Positions 641 to 8,367 of a DNA stretch of 31,719 nucleotides are shown one piece after another. How positions within the stretch are numbered: the first letter of the stretch is position 1; each line of letters begins with the position of its first letter. The notes under the pieces are model-generated. The model saw nothing but the letters and a program-made list of their open reading frames with translations, had not been told where the DNA came from and did not search any database. The position numbers and the translations under genes are program-made. Source of the stretch: Candidatus Levyibacteriota bacterium (GTDB lineage: Bacteria; Patescibacteriota; Microgenomatia; Levybacterales; GWA1-39-11); contig JBDHUV010000001.1 in the NCBI GenBank assembly GCA_039809365.1, positions 1-31,719 of the forward strand. Reading direction: 5' to 3'.

Positions 641-695
641 TAAAATTATGTAGTTTATCTTTTTAATAAGACGTATAGTGAGGTATAATAATAGG

Positions 696-1514
696 ATGAA
701 AATCGGAGCACATCAATCAATTAGTGGAGGATTTGCTGTTGCACTTGAAAGTATTGCCTCTAAAGGTGGAAATACACTGCAGATTTTTGCTTCTTCTCCA
801 AGATTTTGGAGCCAGCCTGAAGTATCTGATGAGACTGCTGAAAAATTTAAGGAAGCAAAGAAAAGATTAAAAATTGAACCAATATATTTCCATGCTTGTT
901 ATTTAATCAATCTGGCAAATACTGAAAAAGGAGGGTATGCGTCTGTTTCAGCGCTGACGAAAGAATTAAAATTAGCATCTAGAATGCATATTAGAGGGAG
1001 TATTATCCATTTAGGTTCGCTTACAAATGGAACATATGAAAAGTTAATTACGAACATTCAAAAAGTAATAGAACAAACGCCAGAAGATACGGTGTTTATT
1101 GCAGAAAATGCAGGTACACGTAAAATTGGTACAACTCTTGAAGAATTAGGGAATATTGTGCGTGATGTAAATCATGAGAGATTAAAAATTTGTTTAGATA
1201 CATGTCATCTCCATGCGGCAGGATATGATTTGAGTTCTCGGAAAAAATTTGATGAATTTTTCTTAGAATTTGATAAAATAATCGGTCTTGAAAAACTTGA
1301 AGTTATTCATGTCAATGATAGTCGCGATCCTTTTGGGTCAAATCGTGATAGACATGAAAATATTGGTGAAGGACAGATCTCTTCAGAAGTTTTTAAGTCA
1401 CTCGTAAATAGCCCTATAACAAAAGACATCCCTCTTATTTTAGAAGTGCCTGGGTTTGATAAAAAAGGACCTGATAAAAAGAATTTAGATATTTTTAAAT
1501 CATATATTCAGTAG
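696..1514 (+). CDS. nfo: Endonuclease IV (AP endonuclease, deoxyribonuclease IV)
   Basis: MKIGAH start; motifs HACYLINLA, IIHLGS, ENAG, CLDTCHLHAAGYD, HVNDS, DRHENIGEG, ILEVP; ATG 696 preferred over GTG 678. Confidence 0.95.
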   Translation: MKIGAHQSISGGFAVALESIASKGGNTLQIFASSPRFWSQPEVSDETAEKFKEAKKRLKIEPIYFHACYLINLANTEKGGYASVSALTKELKLASRMHIRGSIIHLGSLTNGTYEKLITNIQKVIEQTPEDTVFIAENAGTRKIGTTLEELGNIVRDVNHERLKICLDTCHLHAAGYDLSSRKKFDEFFLEFDKIIGLEKLEVIHVNDSRDPFGSNRDRHENIGEGQISSEVFKSLVNSPITKDIPLILEVPGFDKKGPDKKNLDIFKSYIQ

Positions 1515-1523
1515 TTTTACCTC

Positions 1524-2300
1524 ATGGATCACGTTACTTCCTTTAAAAAAACAATATATACTTTTTACGAAAAAAATAGAAGAGATTTTCCTTGGAGAGA
1601 TACACATGATCCATATACTATTCTTGTTTCAGAGCTTATGTTACAACAGACACAAACAGAAAGGGTTGTTCCCAAATATTTAGCATTTATACAAAAATAT
1701 CCAGATTTTGAGTCATTATCTAAAGCATCTATTACAGAAGTTTTAAGTTTATGGAGTGGATTAGGATATAACAGACGAGCTCTCTATTTACATAAAACAT
1801 CCAAGATAGTCGTAAGTGATTTTGGAGGGAAATTGCCAGATGATGAAAAGCTTCTTATACAGTTTCCTGGAATTGGTAAGTATACAGCTGGTGCGATTCT
1901 TTCTTTCGCATTTAATAAAAAAGCTGTTTTTATCGAAACAAATATACGAAGAGTTTTTATTCATTTTTTCTTTTCTGATTCAGATAAAATTACAGACAAG
2001 CAAATACTTCAATATGTTGAACGTACACTTCCTGAGGAAAACTATAGAGATTGGTACTATGCGCTCATGGATTATGGAGCAAGTCTTGCTAAGAATGGAG
2101 AGAATGCGAACACGAAAAGTAAACACTATGTAAAACAATCTCCATTTGAAGGATCTCGAAGACAGCTAAGAGGCAAGATATTACGAGTAGTACTAGCTAA
2201 AGGAGAGCTAGACTATACTCATACAGAGCTTCAAGGTTATAAAAAGTCCTCTATTAATGAAGTGTTTCATGATTTACAAAGTGAAGGACTTATTGACTAA
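1524..2300 (+). CDS. mutY: Short A/G-specific adenine glycosylase (MutY-like HhH-GPD) without Fe-S cysteines
   Basis: FPWR, PYTILVSELMLQQT, WSGLGYNRRA, HhH LIQFPGIGKYTAGAI, ALMDYG. Confidence 0.85.
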   Translation: MDHVTSFKKTIYTFYEKNRRDFPWRDTHDPYTILVSELMLQQTQTERVVPKYLAFIQKYPDFESLSKASITEVLSLWSGLGYNRRALYLHKTSKIVVSDFGGKLPDDEKLLIQFPGIGKYTAGAILSFAFNKKAVFIETNIRRVFIHFFFSDSDKITDKQILQYVERTLPEENYRDWYYALMDYGASLAKNGENANTKSKHYVKQSPFEGSRRQLRGKILRVVLAKGELDYTHTELQGYKKSSINEVFHDLQSEGLID

Positions 2301-2321
2301 TTCAGGTTACAGCCTTATAAT
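2293..2321 (+). promoter_or_regulatory. Sigma70-type promoter for rny
   Basis: TTGACT-N17-TATAAT. Confidence 0.75.
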
Positions 2322-2430
2322 GGGAAAGATAACAGTGAGTGCACGTATGTTTATGAACTGTAGGATTATTTCTCATTTCTTTCTCTCATAACTCATTACT
2401 TGAGCATCTTCTCACTGGTCAAAAATTACT

Positions 2431-3594
2431 ATGTCAGACACAACTCGTGAAGAGTATTTGAAAAAATTAGAAAATGTTTCTTCTCTAACTCGTGAAGAGG
2501 CTCGTACACTGCTTTTAGACGAAGTTCGCAAAGATTCAAAAGCAGATGTTGCTCGTATTATTAAAGAGTCTGAAGATGAAGCAAAAGCTGTTGCACACAA
2601 AAGAGCACAAGAGATTTTAGTTGATGCAATGCGACACGGTACATTAGATATAGTTCCTGAATACACAATCTCTGCAGTAAAAATCCAAGATGAAGATGTA
2701 AAAGGAAAGATCATTGGAAAAGAAGGGCGTAATATTCGCGCATTTGAAAATGCAACTGGAGTTGATGTAGATCTTGATGAACAAGGAATAATCCGTTTAT
2801 CTTCTTTTGACTCGGTAAGAAGAGAAATTGCAAGAAGAGCATTAGAACTTTTGATTAAAGATACTCGTATTCAACCTGTACGTATTGAAGAAGTTGTTGA
2901 GCAAGTAAGAAAAGATGTAGAAAAAATTATGTTTGAAGAAGGAGAGAAGCTTGCTCATGCAGTAAATGCATACAATATTCACCCAGATCTAATTGCAATG
3001 CTTGGAAGATTTAAATTCCGCACCTCATTTGGACAGAATCTAATTGTCCACACTCTTGAAGAAACAAAAATTGGCATGCAGATTGCACACGAAATAGGTG
3101 CAAATGTTGAGATCGTAAAACTCGGATGTCTATTCCATGATATTGGGAAAGTAAATTATGACAAAGAGGGAAGTCATGTTACTCTTGGTGCTGAGATTTT
3201 ACAAAAATACAAAATGCCGAAAGAGGTTATTAATGCAGTTCTTGAGCATCATGAAGATAGACCTTTCAGTTCAGTTGAGTCAGTTATTGTGTATATAGCA
3301 GATGCAATTTCAGGAGCAAGGCCAGGAGCACGACACGAAGATATAGAAGACTACTTCAAGAGGATGAGAGATATGGAAGAGATTGCAAAAAGTTACGATG
3401 GAGTAGTTGATGCATATGCATTTGAAGCAGGACGTGAACTTCGTGTTATTGTAAATCCTGGGAAAATGGATGATGTAGAAACTACAATTGTTGCAAAACA
3501 GATAAAAGAAGAAGTAGATAGAAAATTAATTGTTCCTGGTGTAGTTAAAGTAACCGCAATCCGAGAATTTAGAGTCTCAGAACCAAAAGAATAA
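2431..3594 (+). CDS. rny: Ribonuclease Y (KH + HD domains), N-terminally short
   Basis: KGKIIGKEGRNIRAFENATGVD KH motif, LSSFDSVRRE, FRTSFGQN, LFHDIGK, HHE, ADAISGARPGAR, AGRELRVIV. Confidence 0.95.
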   Translation: MSDTTREEYLKKLENVSSLTREEARTLLLDEVRKDSKADVARIIKESEDEAKAVAHKRAQEILVDAMRHGTLDIVPEYTISAVKIQDEDVKGKIIGKEGRNIRAFENATGVDVDLDEQGIIRLSSFDSVRREIARRALELLIKDTRIQPVRIEEVVEQVRKDVEKIMFEEGEKLAHAVNAYNIHPDLIAMLGRFKFRTSFGQNLIVHTLEETKIGMQIAHEIGANVEIVKLGCLFHDIGKVNYDKEGSHVTLGAEILQKYKMPKEVINAVLEHHEDRPFSSVESVIVYIADAISGARPGARHEDIEDYFKRMRDMEEIAKSYDGVVDAYAFEAGRELRVIVNPGKMDDVETTIVAKQIKEEVDRKLIVPGVVKVTAIREFRVSEPKE

Positions 3595-3633
3595 TATTCA
3601 TTTCCTCCCTTTTTATCAAGCAGTGCCTCTTAC

Positions 3634-3696
3634 TTGACAATCATGAATGATAAGTTGTATTGTTATATCAATCTATGTTGGAAAGTAAGGAGGTGA
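3634..3696 (+). promoter_or_regulatory. HU promoter and very strong Shine-Dalgarno site
   Basis: TTGACA (3634-3639)-N18-TATTGT; TAAGGAGGTGA at 3686-3696, 9 nt before the ATG. Confidence 0.6.
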
Positions 3697-3705
3697 GTTC
3701 TGCCC

Positions 3706-3987
3706 ATGGCATCAGTTACGAAGAAAGATCTTATTGAGCTAGTAGCAAAGAAAGCCAATCTCACAAATAAAGCTTCAAAAGAGGCTGTAAAAGTTTTTCT
3801 CAATGGTATCCGTGATTCACTAAAAAGAAATGAGAAAGTTGTCTTAACAGGATTTGGTACTTTTAGTGTGAGATCAAGAAAACAAAGAAAAGGAAGAAAT
3901 CCAAAAACAGGTGAGACAATTACATTGGCGGCACGAAAAGCTCCTGGATTTACACCTGGAAAAAGTCTCAAGAAATATATTAGATAG
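3706..3987 (+). CDS. hup: HU family histone-like DNA-binding protein
   Basis: TKKDLIELVA, VVLTGFGTFSV, RKGRNPKTGETI, FTPGKSLK. Confidence 0.95.
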   Translation: MASVTKKDLIELVAKKANLTNKASKEAVKVFLNGIRDSLKRNEKVVLTGFGTFSVRSRKQRKGRNPKTGETITLAARKAPGFTPGKSLKKYIR

Positions 3988-4003
3988 GGTATAATTGGCC
4001 TAT

Positions 4004-4984
4004 ATGAAAAAGGCGATTATAGTGAGTGGACCTACAGCAAGTGGGAAAACAGCTCTCGTGTTTGATATTGTCAGGAATATTAATGCTGCAGTTATTAATG
4101 CAGACTCACGACAAGTCTACAAATCGATAGATATTATTGTGGGGAAAGACATTCCTGAAGACTCAGACTTTATATCCTGTCCAGAAGGAAAGTATGATAT
4201 TGGCTATTTTACTATCCCCTATTCTCGACTCTATTTATCTGCAGTACTTACGTCTGTAACAGAAGAGTTTTCAGTAGCTGATTATCTATATCTCGTAGAG
4301 AAAGTACTTTCAGACCTCGACACTTCAATTATTCCTATTTTTGTGGGTGGTTCTAATTTTTATATCTCTGCCTTGTCCAATCCTCCCCAGACATTATCAG
4401 TACCTCAAAACGTATCACTTCGTATGAAACTTTCAAAATACTCAGTGACTCAGTTACAAGATTTGCTAAAAAAAGAAGATAAAAATAAGATATCCCGGAT
4501 GAATGATTCTGATAGAAATAATCCTCGAAGACTTATCAGAGCGATTGAAGTAGCAAAGTGGAAAAATACATTAAACGGTAAAAAATCTGGAAATTTACAG
4601 CAAAGTGCTGTTTTGGCAGGTTATGAAATTTTCAATATTGGACTTGTTGCTCCACTAGATCAACTCAGAAGAAAAATTGATGCTCGGGTAGATGCTCGTA
4701 TTACACAAGGAGCAATAGAAGAAGCAAAAGAAGTTTTTGCCCAGTATGAAAATGTTTCCAACACCATCAAAATGACAAATGGATTTAGAGAGTTGTTTGA
4801 GTATTTCCAGAATGAAGTATCATATAAAGAAGCAATTCAGAAATGGAAATATGCCGAATATCACAATGCAAAAAAGCAGCTTACGTGGATGAATGCAGAT
4901 AGTAGTGTAAAGAAATACTCTATTGTTCAACCACATTTTGAAGAAATTATACTTCAGGACATACTCGATTTCCTCCAAAAGTAG
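4004..4984 (+). CDS. miaA: tRNA dimethylallyltransferase
   Basis: GPTASGKT P-loop, INADSRQVY, RRLIRAIEV, AKKQLTW; ATG 4004 preferred over TTG 3995. Confidence 0.9.
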   Translation: MKKAIIVSGPTASGKTALVFDIVRNINAAVINADSRQVYKSIDIIVGKDIPEDSDFISCPEGKYDIGYFTIPYSRLYLSAVLTSVTEEFSVADYLYLVEKVLSDLDTSIIPIFVGGSNFYISALSNPPQTLSVPQNVSLRMKLSKYSVTQLQDLLKKEDKNKISRMNDSDRNNPRRLIRAIEVAKWKNTLNGKKSGNLQQSAVLAGYEIFNIGLVAPLDQLRRKIDARVDARITQGAIEEAKEVFAQYENVSNTIKMTNGFRELFEYFQNEVSYKEAIQKWKYAEYHNAKKQLTWMNADSSVKKYSIVQPHFEEIILQDILDFLQK

Positions 4985-5062
4985 ATATGGAGAGGTAATA
5001 GCACAACCAATCAATTACTATAAGCTTTATTTTTAGCCACAAATAGTGTATAATGGTATATA

Positions 5063-5387
5063 GCTCTGGGAAGAAGAGCTGCTACTGCATGAGTAGGTAT
5101 CATGTGGAGGAAAGTCCAGACAGTCTTAAAGCCGGGATCGGGGCGTAAGCTCCGACTAGCAATAGCTGGTGTTCTGACTCTTTACTCACATATGGAGTCG
5201 GGAACAGGAGTTGAATTTACAATTCCTGAGAGTCACAGAGACGAGTGAGTGTGAAACGATGACAATCCCACCCGCTGCAACCTCCGAATGGCCGAGAGAT
5301 GCTTTATCTCGCTAGTATAGGCCGAAGCTTGAGGGCATAGATAAATAGCAGTGACAAACAGAATCTGGCTTACTCTCTTCCCAGTGC
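5063..5387 (+). ncRNA. rnpB: RNase P RNA (structurally reduced)
   Basis: GAGGAAAGTCCAGA (5107-5120) and AACAGAATCTGGCTTA form P4; P1 CTGGGAAGA/TCTTCCCAG; P2 CTGCTA/TAGCAG; CACAGAGAC and GTGAAAC resemble CR-II/III; TAGATAAAT resembles CR-IV; TATAAT at 5049-5054. Confidence 0.95.
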
Positions 5388-5391
5388 TAAT

Positions 5392-5423
5392 AAAAAGTCT
5401 CGGTGAAAGCCGAGATTTTTTTT
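5392..5423. terminator. Bidirectional intrinsic terminator between rnpB and the helicase gene
   Basis: AAAAAG-TCTCGGT-GAAA-GCCGAGA-TTTTTTTT, with an A-tract before and a T-tract after. Confidence 0.85.
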
Positions 5424-5436
5424 GGAGAAATAGCTA

Positions 5437-8367
5437 TTAATACGCATTACAAAGCATTTTATATTCACAGTTTTGACAAAGGATATTCTTACTACATGCA
5501 AAATCACTTTGTTCAATCTCAGCAATTTTTTTCTGAATCTCTGCTTCAGTATATTTGAGATCATCAAGCGTAATATCTCGAGTAAGTTTTTCGCCTGTTT
5601 CTAAGTATAGGAGAGAAACAGTAATTTCTTCAGGTTTTTTTCCGAGATATTCATTTTTAACTTGTGTTGCAGCAAGAGCATAAAGTCCAAGCTGGAGTTG
5701 GTACGATCTCTTTGAAAGAGATTTTGGTTTCCCTGTTTTATAATCAATAATCTCAATTCCTCCATCAGGTCTTCTATCGATTCTGTCTATAAATCCAGAT
5801 ATTTTTACAGGCTTGGATTGAGGATCTTCGTTTTTATTAATAAAAAATGAGAATGGATGTTCAAGTGTAAGAGGAGAGTGAACAGGATCATAATACGTGT
5901 CATAATATTGTGCTAATAAATGCTCGCCGTGTTCAAACATTTCATTCTCATATGCTTTTGACATAAATCCTTCAGATCTCCAGTGTTTTCTTAGGAGTAG
6001 TAAAAAATCTTTTTTTGAGAAAAGTATTTTTTCCATAGCTGAACTGTGGAGCTCGTGTAAACTTTCATGCATTGCTGATCCAAAACTAAGAGGTCCTGAG
6101 TTAGGAGTAGGGATGTTAAGGAGATATCTTGCTTTAAAATGAAGAGGGCAAAGATCAAATGCTTGGAGTTGGGAAAATGAAATAGAAGTTATATTGAGTG
6201 GTAGTAAAGGCTCTGTATTATTTAAACTGTTATTTTCTACTGAGTAATCTCTCGTTGCTTCTAATAAAGTAAGTTGGGTAGGTGAGTACTTCTCAGTTTT
6301 TTGTAGATTTACTTCAGGTAGTGCTTCAGAAATAAAAGGAGAAAGTTTTTTTTCACGTTTTCCTTCTGCATAAAATTTAGACGCGGTAAAATAAAGCCTT
6401 TCTTTTGCTCTGGTCATCCCTACATAAAAAAGCCTTCTTTCTTCTTGAATATGAAAGTCTCCTGTTGGGAGTACTTCTTTTATTAAATTATCTGGTACTG
6501 GTAATGTTTCTCGTCTCGCTCTTGATGGAAATCTATCGTTTACAAGGTTTACCAAAAATACTACAGGGAACTCTAATCCTTTACTTGAATGAATAGTCAA
6601 TATTTTTACAGCATTAAATTCTTTCCAGTCAATCTCTTGAATAAGCGGGCTATCACCCATTTCCATCATCAAATCGATCCACTCGACAGTGGAGTGCAAA
6701 CTTATATTCTTATTCAGTGTTTCGTATGTTTTTAATTTGTCAAAAAATCTTGCAATATTTTGAGCAACCTGTTCTTCTTGTTGTGTTTTATACTCTACAA
6801 ACTTTTCAAATAAGCCTGTGTCAGTTAGAAAATAGTAAAGAATTTGTCCTGGCATATCGACCTTTGATCTATCAAGATGATGAATAATCATTTCATGTAT
6901 TTTTTTTATTTTTTCTTTTGTTTCATCTGTGAGGTTTGTTTCCTCAATTTTCTCAAGAGCTTCAAAAAGAGAGTAGTTATTTTTTTTTGCAAACTGTAAA
7001 AGAAAAGTTAGGTCCCTCATAGGTAATCTAAAAATATCCATCTGGAGAACTTTAAAAAGTGAAACAGAGTCTTCAAGATTTGCGAGTAACCGTAAATATG
7101 ATATTAAGTTTTTTATTTCGTCTCTTTGAAATAACTGTGCAGGTCCTAAAAATTGATAGGGAATTTTTAAACGTTGAAGAGCTTGTGTAATTGGTTGGGC
7201 ATGATTATTTGCCCGAACAAGTATTGCAATATCTGAGTATGTATACCTGTCTTTTTTTGTTAACTCTAGTATTTTACGTGCTATGGACTCTGCCTCTTCA
7301 TCGCTTCTTGTGGTGTAGATAAACTCAATAGGGAAATCTTTAGACTTTTTATTACTAATTAATTTCTTGTCTATTTTTTCCATAACTTCAAGTCTGTTTG
7401 GATTGTTATGTTGGATCATCATATATGCACTATCTAAAATTGCTTGGACAGATCGATAATTTTGAGTTAAGGTAATAATCTGTGCCTTAGGAAAATTAGT
7501 TCTAAACTGTATTACATTTGAAAGTGCGGCTCCTCTCCATCGATAAATTGCTTGGTCATCATCTGCAACAACTGTAATGTTTTGTTTTTCTCCAGAAAGC
7601 ATAACTGCAAGAGTGTTTTGAGCAAAGTTTGTGTCTTGGAATTCATCAATAAGAATATATTTAAACTGTGTTTGATATTTTTTTAAAATGTTTTTTCTTT
7701 TTCTAAAGAGAGCAAGTGTTTGGGCAATAACATCAGAGAAGTCAATCATCCCTGCTTTTAATTTTATATCTGAGTATTGAGAGTAGGCTGTTGCTAATTC
7801 TAAGTTTTTTTCAGCCTCTTCTTTTTCCTCATCTGTTAGTGAATTTTGTGTATCTGGAGAGACTTGAGATTGTGCCCATTCAAGATATTCAGATGGAGAA
7901 ATATCTTCGTCTTGAAGTCTTGAGAAATGTTGGAGCATTGCTTCGACAAATTTATTCGGATTTCCTAACGGTCTAAAATATTTTAGATTGAGAGTGAATA
8001 AATGCTGTTTTAAGAAAAGTACACTATCTGATTCTGTCATAAGTGTATAGTTTGGATTTAGCCCAATATGTATCCCCTCTTCGCGAAGAAGAGTGTCACA
8101 GAAGGAATGGAAAGTGGATATCCATAGTTGTGAGTATCCATAAGGCATCATCATATCCACCCGTTCTTCCATCTCTGAAGCAGCTTTTTCAGTAAAAGTA
8201 AGTGCAAGGATGCTACTTGGATCAATATTTTTATCTACAATAAGGTGTCTTATTCTCTCAGTGATCACCGTTGTTTTTCCTGTCCCTGCTCCAGCTATAA
8301 TAAGTAAGGGGCCTTCTCCTGATAGAACAGCTTTTTTTTGTGAAGCATTGAGCTGAGTATTATTCAT
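5437..8367 (-). CDS. UvrD/PcrA-family SF1A helicase fused to a C-terminal PD-(D/E)XK nuclease (AddA/AdnA-like)
   Basis: AGAGTGKT, LALTFTEKAA, TFHSF, ILIDEFQDTN, DDDQAIYRWRGA, NYRS, TIHSSKGLEF, EERRLFYVGMTRA; nuclease GFIDRID...IIDYKTG, QLGLY; terminal CQNCEYKMLC. Confidence 0.9.
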   Translation of the reverse strand: MNNTQLNASQKKAVLSGEGPLLIIAGAGTGKTTVITERIRHLIVDKNIDPSSILALTFTEKAASEMEERVDMMMPYGYSQLWISTFHSFCDTLLREEGIHIGLNPNYTLMTESDSVLFLKQHLFTLNLKYFRPLGNPNKFVEAMLQHFSRLQDEDISPSEYLEWAQSQVSPDTQNSLTDEEKEEAEKNLELATAYSQYSDIKLKAGMIDFSDVIAQTLALFRKRKNILKKYQTQFKYILIDEFQDTNFAQNTLAVMLSGEKQNITVVADDDQAIYRWRGAALSNVIQFRTNFPKAQIITLTQNYRSVQAILDSAYMMIQHNNPNRLEVMEKIDKKLISNKKSKDFPIEFIYTTRSDEEAESIARKILELTKKDRYTYSDIAILVRANNHAQPITQALQRLKIPYQFLGPAQLFQRDEIKNLISYLRLLANLEDSVSLFKVLQMDIFRLPMRDLTFLLQFAKKNNYSLFEALEKIEETNLTDETKEKIKKIHEMIIHHLDRSKVDMPGQILYYFLTDTGLFEKFVEYKTQQEEQVAQNIARFFDKLKTYETLNKNISLHSTVEWIDLMMEMGDSPLIQEIDWKEFNAVKILTIHSSKGLEFPVVFLVNLVNDRFPSRARRETLPVPDNLIKEVLPTGDFHIQEERRLFYVGMTRAKERLYFTASKFYAEGKREKKLSPFISEALPEVNLQKTEKYSPTQLTLLEATRDYSVENNSLNNTEPLLPLNITSISFSQLQAFDLCPLHFKARYLLNIPTPNSGPLSFGSAMHESLHELHSSAMEKILFSKKDFLLLLRKHWRSEGFMSKAYENEMFEHGEHLLAQYYDTYYDPVHSPLTLEHPFSFFINKNEDPQSKPVKISGFIDRIDRRPDGGIEIIDYKTGKPKSLSKRSYQLQLGLYALAATQVKNEYLGKKPEEITVSLLYLETGEKLTRDITLDDLKYTEAEIQKKIAEIEQSDFACSKNILCQNCEYKMLCNAY

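Follow-up and report, generated by a model that had tools for sequence, protein, structure and literature searches.

A five-base-pair pseudoknot at the position of helix P12 in the predicted RNase P RNA of a Levybacteria bacterium

Positions 5063–5387 of the forward strand of the window (the whole stretch of 31,719 nucleotides analysed) encode what is predicted to be the working RNA component of RNase P, the RNA enzyme by which tRNA precursors are trimmed, in an uncultured, ultra-small Levybacteria bacterium; its role would be ordinary housekeeping. Helix P12, a hairpin that is nearly universal, is absent from this RNA, and the short strand found in its place is predicted to pair with a loop belonging to one of two hairpins added at the P10.1 site. 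The five base pairs of this pseudoknot (5185–5189 with 5245–5249) are, on the comparative data given below, nearly certain to be real. Judged from its sequence, this is a real variant of RNase P RNA with a new structure, of neither type A nor type B and type-C-like in layout. The loss of P12 is known in Microgenomatia; a pseudoknot replacing P12 was not found in the searchable literature.

The original prediction had suggested a comparison with the RNase P models of Rfam. RF00010 gave the best match (5066–5388, E 5.5e-18, 60.6 bits, below the gathering cut-off of 100), the other Rfam RNase P models scored lower at 5063–5387, and a search at the gathering (curated) thresholds returned no match for this rnpB. 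The ends of P1 delimit the gene, as indicated by the RF00010 match, the helix table and the homologues; CR I–V, P4 with its bulged U, and helices P1–P11 and P15–P17 are all pairable within it, and an rnpB homologue is present in 60 of 61 relatives. RnpA is encoded in the same genome (PF00825, 63.4 bits, contig C4, 8820–9083), in which no match to PF08745 (HARP-type PIN) was detected. The assembly comprises 719 kb and is 91% complete, and the proteins nearest to its rpS3 bear the name Candidatus Levybacteria (Microgenomatia).

The rnpB gene sits in the gap between miaA (3995–4984) and a convergent UvrD/PD-(D/E)XK gene (5437–8367). The neighbourhood at 678–8367 of the window includes a member of the TIM-barrel AP endonuclease family, an HhH-GPD glycosylase, RNase Y, HU, miaA and rnpB, after which comes the convergent gene, in which UvrD is fused to the PD-(D/E)XK nuclease. 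A probable −10 box, TATAAT, lies at 5049–5054 on the forward strand; TATAAT or TAAAAT stands upstream of most homologues, and a two-hexamer promoter scan did not flag the box at 5049–5054. The terminator-like hairpin at 5398–5423 has T runs on both strands and would be shared with the convergent gene, its minus-strand site having been called by the scan and its plus-strand T8 (5416–5423) by eye.

All elements of the RNA lie on the forward strand. CR I, with the 5′ strand of P4 and the bulged U5115, occupies 5107–5120, where CCAG/CUGG is found versus CCGG/CCGG in relatives; CR V, with the 3′ strand of P4, lies at 5357–5373 and is supported by the RF00010 match and by pairing. The spacer between P5 and P7 is 9 nt long and carries the 5′ strand of P6 (5127–5132), whose partner (5301–5306) lies in L17. 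When own-partner pairing was compared with cross-pairing, P6 formed at least five Watson-Crick base pairs with its own partner in 80 of 85 homologues versus 28% of cross-pairings. P8 (5139–5154) and P9 (5156–5165) are each capped by a GNRA loop, and all of their pairs covary. P15, an L15 without GGU, P16 and P17 follow at 5281–5335. CCA is encoded in only about 3 of the 27 tRNA genes of the genome, which is consistent with the missing GGU in L15. Unusual tRNA calls were also noted on contigs C15, C37 and C57: Ile(UAU), Ser(ACU) alongside Ser(GCU), Arg(GCG), and one whose anticodon loop has 8 nt.

The P10.1 site, flanked by the 5′ strands of P10 (5167–5169) and P11, holds two extra hairpins. 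The first, P10.1a (5172–5203), has 9–10 bp and a 12–14-nt loop, with two-sided changes in nine of nine pairs and 97.6% pairing; the second, P10.1b (5206–5227), has 8 bp, seven of which covary by two-sided changes, and is 99% paired. Two hairpins near P10.1 had been predicted, and both are real and exactly at that site, the first being slightly shorter than the 5171–5205 proposed. The loop of P10.1b (5213–5220) has near-invariant columns with the consensus GAAUURAC, which is kept alike in the pseudoknot, receptor and kissing forms described below.

CR II (J11/12, 5235–5244), with invariant columns, supplies the first T-loop strand, and CR III (J12/13, GUGAAAC, 5251–5257) the second. Where P12 is expected, they are separated by the six nucleotides GUGAGU (5245–5250), hereafter the stub; the predicted coordinates, and the lack of a P12 hairpin, were exact. 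P11 comes directly after CR III with no P13 or P14, as had been claimed, and the GUCA/UGAC pairing taken for the helix proved to be only its distal part, preceded by GA/UC (5230–5231/5266–5267) and an AA bulge. Since only 21 nt lie between P15 and CR V, there is indeed no room for P18 or P19, and P12, P13, P14, P18 and P19 are all absent from this RNA. A longer insert, often of two hairpins, occupies the P18/P15.1 site in 73 of 85 pseudoknot-type relatives (L006, L011, L012, L015 and others); this insert between P15 and CR IV has been lost in the present genus and a few others.

The sequence ACUCAC (5184–5189) in the loop of P10.1a pairs at six of six positions with GUGAGU (5245–5250). For a loop of 14 nt and a stub of 8 nt, a 6-nt match arises in about 0.5% of random draws and a 5-nt match in 3%, so that a single sequence is weak evidence and comparative data must decide. 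Minimum-energy folding was discarded as evidence because it cannot draw a pseudoknot. The homologues were gathered without regard to the pairing of loop and stub. In an unedited MAFFT alignment (n = 43), 94.4% of cells at pairs 5185–5189/5245–5249 are paired and two-sided changes are seen in all five pairs, with slid controls paired at 23–58%. An alignment-free test found all five pairs in 112 of 113 homologues, purely Watson-Crick in 106, and five-of-five pairing in only 1.0% when the loop was tested on a different stub. The pairs were likewise complete in 69 of the 70 sequences of a held-out set, 66 of them purely Watson-Crick. On a tree built without the pseudoknot columns, 74–100% of changes are common to both partners, the references being 82% for nested helices and 63% for the 99th percentile of non-pairing columns, and the RpoB tree gives the same pattern of coupled changes. 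The covariation between loop and stub on which the original prediction had staked its case is thus borne out in the held-out set and on the trees. The pseudoknot strand also keeps a fixed position, 5–8 nt from the stem end in 112 of 113 homologues.

The pairing had been proposed with six pairs, of which the five at 5185–5189/5245–5249 covary. The sixth, A5184–U5250, is paired in 19 of 43 aligned sequences and shares 35% of its changes; being poorly kept and uncoupled, it is incidental, and we rejected it as a conserved member of the pseudoknot. The failure of this pair, together with the fact that two sequence types make up 57 of the 113 homologues, would suit a complementarity arising as a by-product of common ancestry or sequence bias. 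However, 24 strand/stub combinations occur among the homologues, the first pair also switches from C-G to U-A, each stub column has undergone 5–25 changes, and the high proportion of shared changes on the tree is confined to the antiparallel diagonal. These comparisons largely refute the by-product reading, to which we attach almost no credence.

A covariance model of this RNA (R1) was used for genome scans and finds rnpB in 148 of 151 genomes of the order, in which the Rfam threshold fails for the present genome; it matches 135 of 151 genomes of the class and 29 of 151 of the phylum. The unpublished genome G216 was counted only in this tally, its sequence not being among those read. A looser scan of genome contigs for the pattern CR II–gap–CR III gave chance matches only. 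The pseudoknot form is present in 107 of the 118 order genomes read in sequence, the P12/pseudoknot state of G013, G293, G228 and G280 having been assigned by eye, and it recurs in four further families of the class and, beyond the class, in a single family of another. The stub of two-hairpin RNAs comes in two sizes, exactly 6 nt (114 RNAs) or at least 15 nt, with nothing between, and the pseudoknot loop occurs in no P12-bearing two-hairpin relative. At the level of sequence, these comparisons show that the two strands pair, that they do so in a constant geometry, and that the pseudoknot and P12 exclude each other.

In type B RNase P RNA, the interdigitated double T-loop, which stacks on the tRNA elbow, depends for its folding on the tetraloop/receptor contact between P12 and P10.1, and in mutants of the P12 tetraloop contact P10 and P12 separate, the T-loop unfolds and substrate binding is blocked (PMC13254310). 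A pseudoknot from the S-domain to L12 is crucial in Deinococcus radiodurans at low, physiological Mg2+ (PMC8457005). In the Levybacteria RNA, the five-base-pair helix would substitute for the base of P12 and for the brace at once. It would tie P10.1a to the CR II/CR III junction and keep their ends together, whereupon the interdigitated double T-loop of CR II and CR III could form and then stack against the tRNA elbow, the same job as that of the type B contact. We consider it probable that the pseudoknot is such a brace, letting CR II and CR III form the platform for the tRNA elbow. The predicted replacement of the P10.1–P12 brace is supported in that P12-bearing relatives link the same two elements by other means.

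The fit to the base of P12 is not exact, as a 5–6-nt A-form strand spans about 22–24 Å (an ideal A-form estimate), somewhat more than the roughly 18 Å across a helix end. Moreover, P12-less Microgenomatia without P10.1 hairpins or pseudoknot (families f40, f35, f44 and f15; L264, L267, L268 and L275) indicate that a brace is not always needed. In one of these, L275, CR II runs directly into CR III. The existence of such partnerless RNAs in the class, and a P10.1b loop more conserved than the pseudoknot itself, would agree with a guard role in folding, whereby the pairing protects the exposed strand between CR II and CR III against wrong pairings, while the P10.1b loop or a protein holds the T-loop platform. 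This reading seems unlikely to us, as the 6-nt stub and the constant place of the strand relative to the stem end suggest a geometric role, and in P12-bearing relatives different contacts join these two elements. Covariation speaks for pairing, but not for its timing or its location within one molecule. It is blind to cis versus trans, and type B RNase P holoenzymes can dimerise, so the two strands might conceivably be swapped between two RNA molecules of a dimer. However, P10.1 and P12 are direct neighbours within one type B S-domain (PMC13254310), and five base pairs would be weak for a trans contact; we regard a strand-swapped dimer as highly improbable and retain the brace within one molecule.

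The contacts of the P12-bearing relatives are of two kinds. Many two-hairpin relatives with P12 have P10.1a capped by GAAA and a receptor-like internal loop in P12. The P12 internal loop is an exact match to the 11-nt receptor consensus CCUAAG/UAUGG in three RNAs (G264, G144 and G081) and a near match in another 13. Of 40 two-hairpin RNAs with P12, the GAAA loop is found in 21 of 23 with the receptor-like motif versus 2 of 17 without. On the tree this association amounts to 7 independent pairs with a median p of 0.125, which is not significant, and it is therefore a lead. The distribution is suggestive of a GAAA loop of L10.1a docking into a P12 receptor, with the polarity reversed from type B. 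The brace replaced had been taken to be the L12–P10.1 contact of type B; the position of the brace stands, and the alternate contact in this lineage apparently runs the other way.

In family f30, P12 is intact and L10.1a is complementary to L12 in 13 of 15 RNAs versus 56 of 210 cross-combinations, with the changed pairs ACCGA/UCGGU, ACUAG/CUAGU, GUCGA/UCGAC and GCUAA/UUAGC. This kiss (L458–L473), a covarying loop-loop pairing alongside an intact P12, is a possible intermediate to the pseudoknot. We infer that the lineage uses three alternative links from P10.1a to the P12 position, namely GAAA with a P12 receptor, the L12 kiss and the P12-less pseudoknot. Further families have P12 without the hairpins, or neither. 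Since relatives offer other braces in nearly the same sequence frame, the role of P12 in elbow recognition becomes a direct swap question, and its loss here appears to be compensated by a defined, testable pairing. As a separate observation, a palindromic repeat-like insert recurs in rnpB genes that are unrelated to one another, situated in either P9 or P12 (L174, L175, L225, L235, L281, L319, L326 and L480), and in P12 it eliminates the receptor-like motif. Genome G096 has two rnpB copies (L283, on contig C49, and one on C50); the receptor-type copy, whose contig measures 2.9 kb, is similar to family f31 and probably represents contamination.

Switches between the pseudoknot and P12 forms number at least 14 on the RpoB tree, and the pseudoknot and receptor forms coexist within single genera. 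Outside the P10.1–P12 block, rnpB follows the genus, receptor-type genes grouping with their pseudoknot-type congeners, and the hypothesis that receptor-type genes form one clade within the order was rejected (p-AU 2e-61). The P10.1–P12 blocks of receptor-type genes have a distinctive second hairpin in common. The simplest reading is that the block has been exchanged by recombination, although the switches may instead represent repeated origin. We give about an even chance to the wider proposition that part of the Patescibacteria has its own class of RNase P RNA, with a two-hairpin P10.1, three interchangeable contacts at the P12 position and a block swapped between lineages as a cassette in an essential gene.

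Our search of the literature on RNase P structure in Patescibacteria, Levybacteria or CPR found only the work of Lui, Nielsen and Arkin (2021), who reported two Microgenomatia genomes with an RNase P RNA lacking P12 (PMC8172020). From what is accessible of that paper, those RNAs resemble ours in coming from Microgenomatia, in lacking P12, P13, P14, P18 and the L15 GGU/UGG motif, and in being missed at Rfam thresholds. The accessible text mentions neither P10.1-type hairpins nor a pseudoknot, and these two genomes may have the present form or a P12-less form without hairpins. No description of the pseudoknot was found in the searchable papers, a scope outside which three older key papers fall, and the searched part of a PNAS 2026 supplement contains neither Levybacteria nor Microgenomates. 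The expectation that this RNA is not an already described CPR subtype is hence upheld for the pseudoknot within that scope, and has to be given up for the loss of P12 (PMC8172020).

Type A (RF00010) is the best Rfam match and has P6, P16, P17 and CR I–V in common with this RNA. Membership was rejected on the presence of P10.1, the absence of P12, P13 and P14, and a score of 60.6 against 100 bits; P18 is missing as well, and the P10.1 hairpins are extra. Type B (RF00011; B. subtilis, G. stearothermophilus) likewise has a helix between P10 and P11, no P13/P14, and a brace in the S-domain that joins P10.1 to the P12 position. In contrast to type B, this RNA has no P5.1 or P15.1, keeps P6, P16 and P17, lacks P12 and hence the L12 GAAA, has no receptor motif in its P10.1 helices and would be braced by Watson-Crick pairs; membership of type B was rejected accordingly. 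In type B, P12 contributes the loop and P10.1 the receptor (PMC2813881), whereas in the P12-bearing relatives P10.1a carries the loop and P12 the receptor-like motif. Mycoplasma fermentans and type T of the Thermoproteaceae also have no P12, but type T has lost P11, CR II and CR III too, and neither is described with a replacing pseudoknot in the two sources consulted (PMC8172020, PMC7191817). The P9c pseudoknot of D. radiodurans, tested by compensatory mutants, is similarly a Watson-Crick S-domain brace aimed at the P12 element, but there an extended P9 serves as the partner, and the RNA, of type A frame, retains P12 (PMC8457005). The claim that the architecture fits neither type A nor type B was correct, but it had overlooked P6, P16 and P17 and had not considered type C, the closest layout. 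Type C keeps P12, and this RNA differs from it in lacking P12, in having two P10.1 hairpins and in belonging to another phylum; P15.2 is missing from this RNA and from 11 further short forms, and the longer insert seen in 73 of 85 relatives occupies the corresponding site. Compared by definition, P6, P16 and P17 together with the P10.1 insertion place the layout nearest to type C, known from the Chloroflexi Thermomicrobium and Sphaerobacter (PMC7191817).
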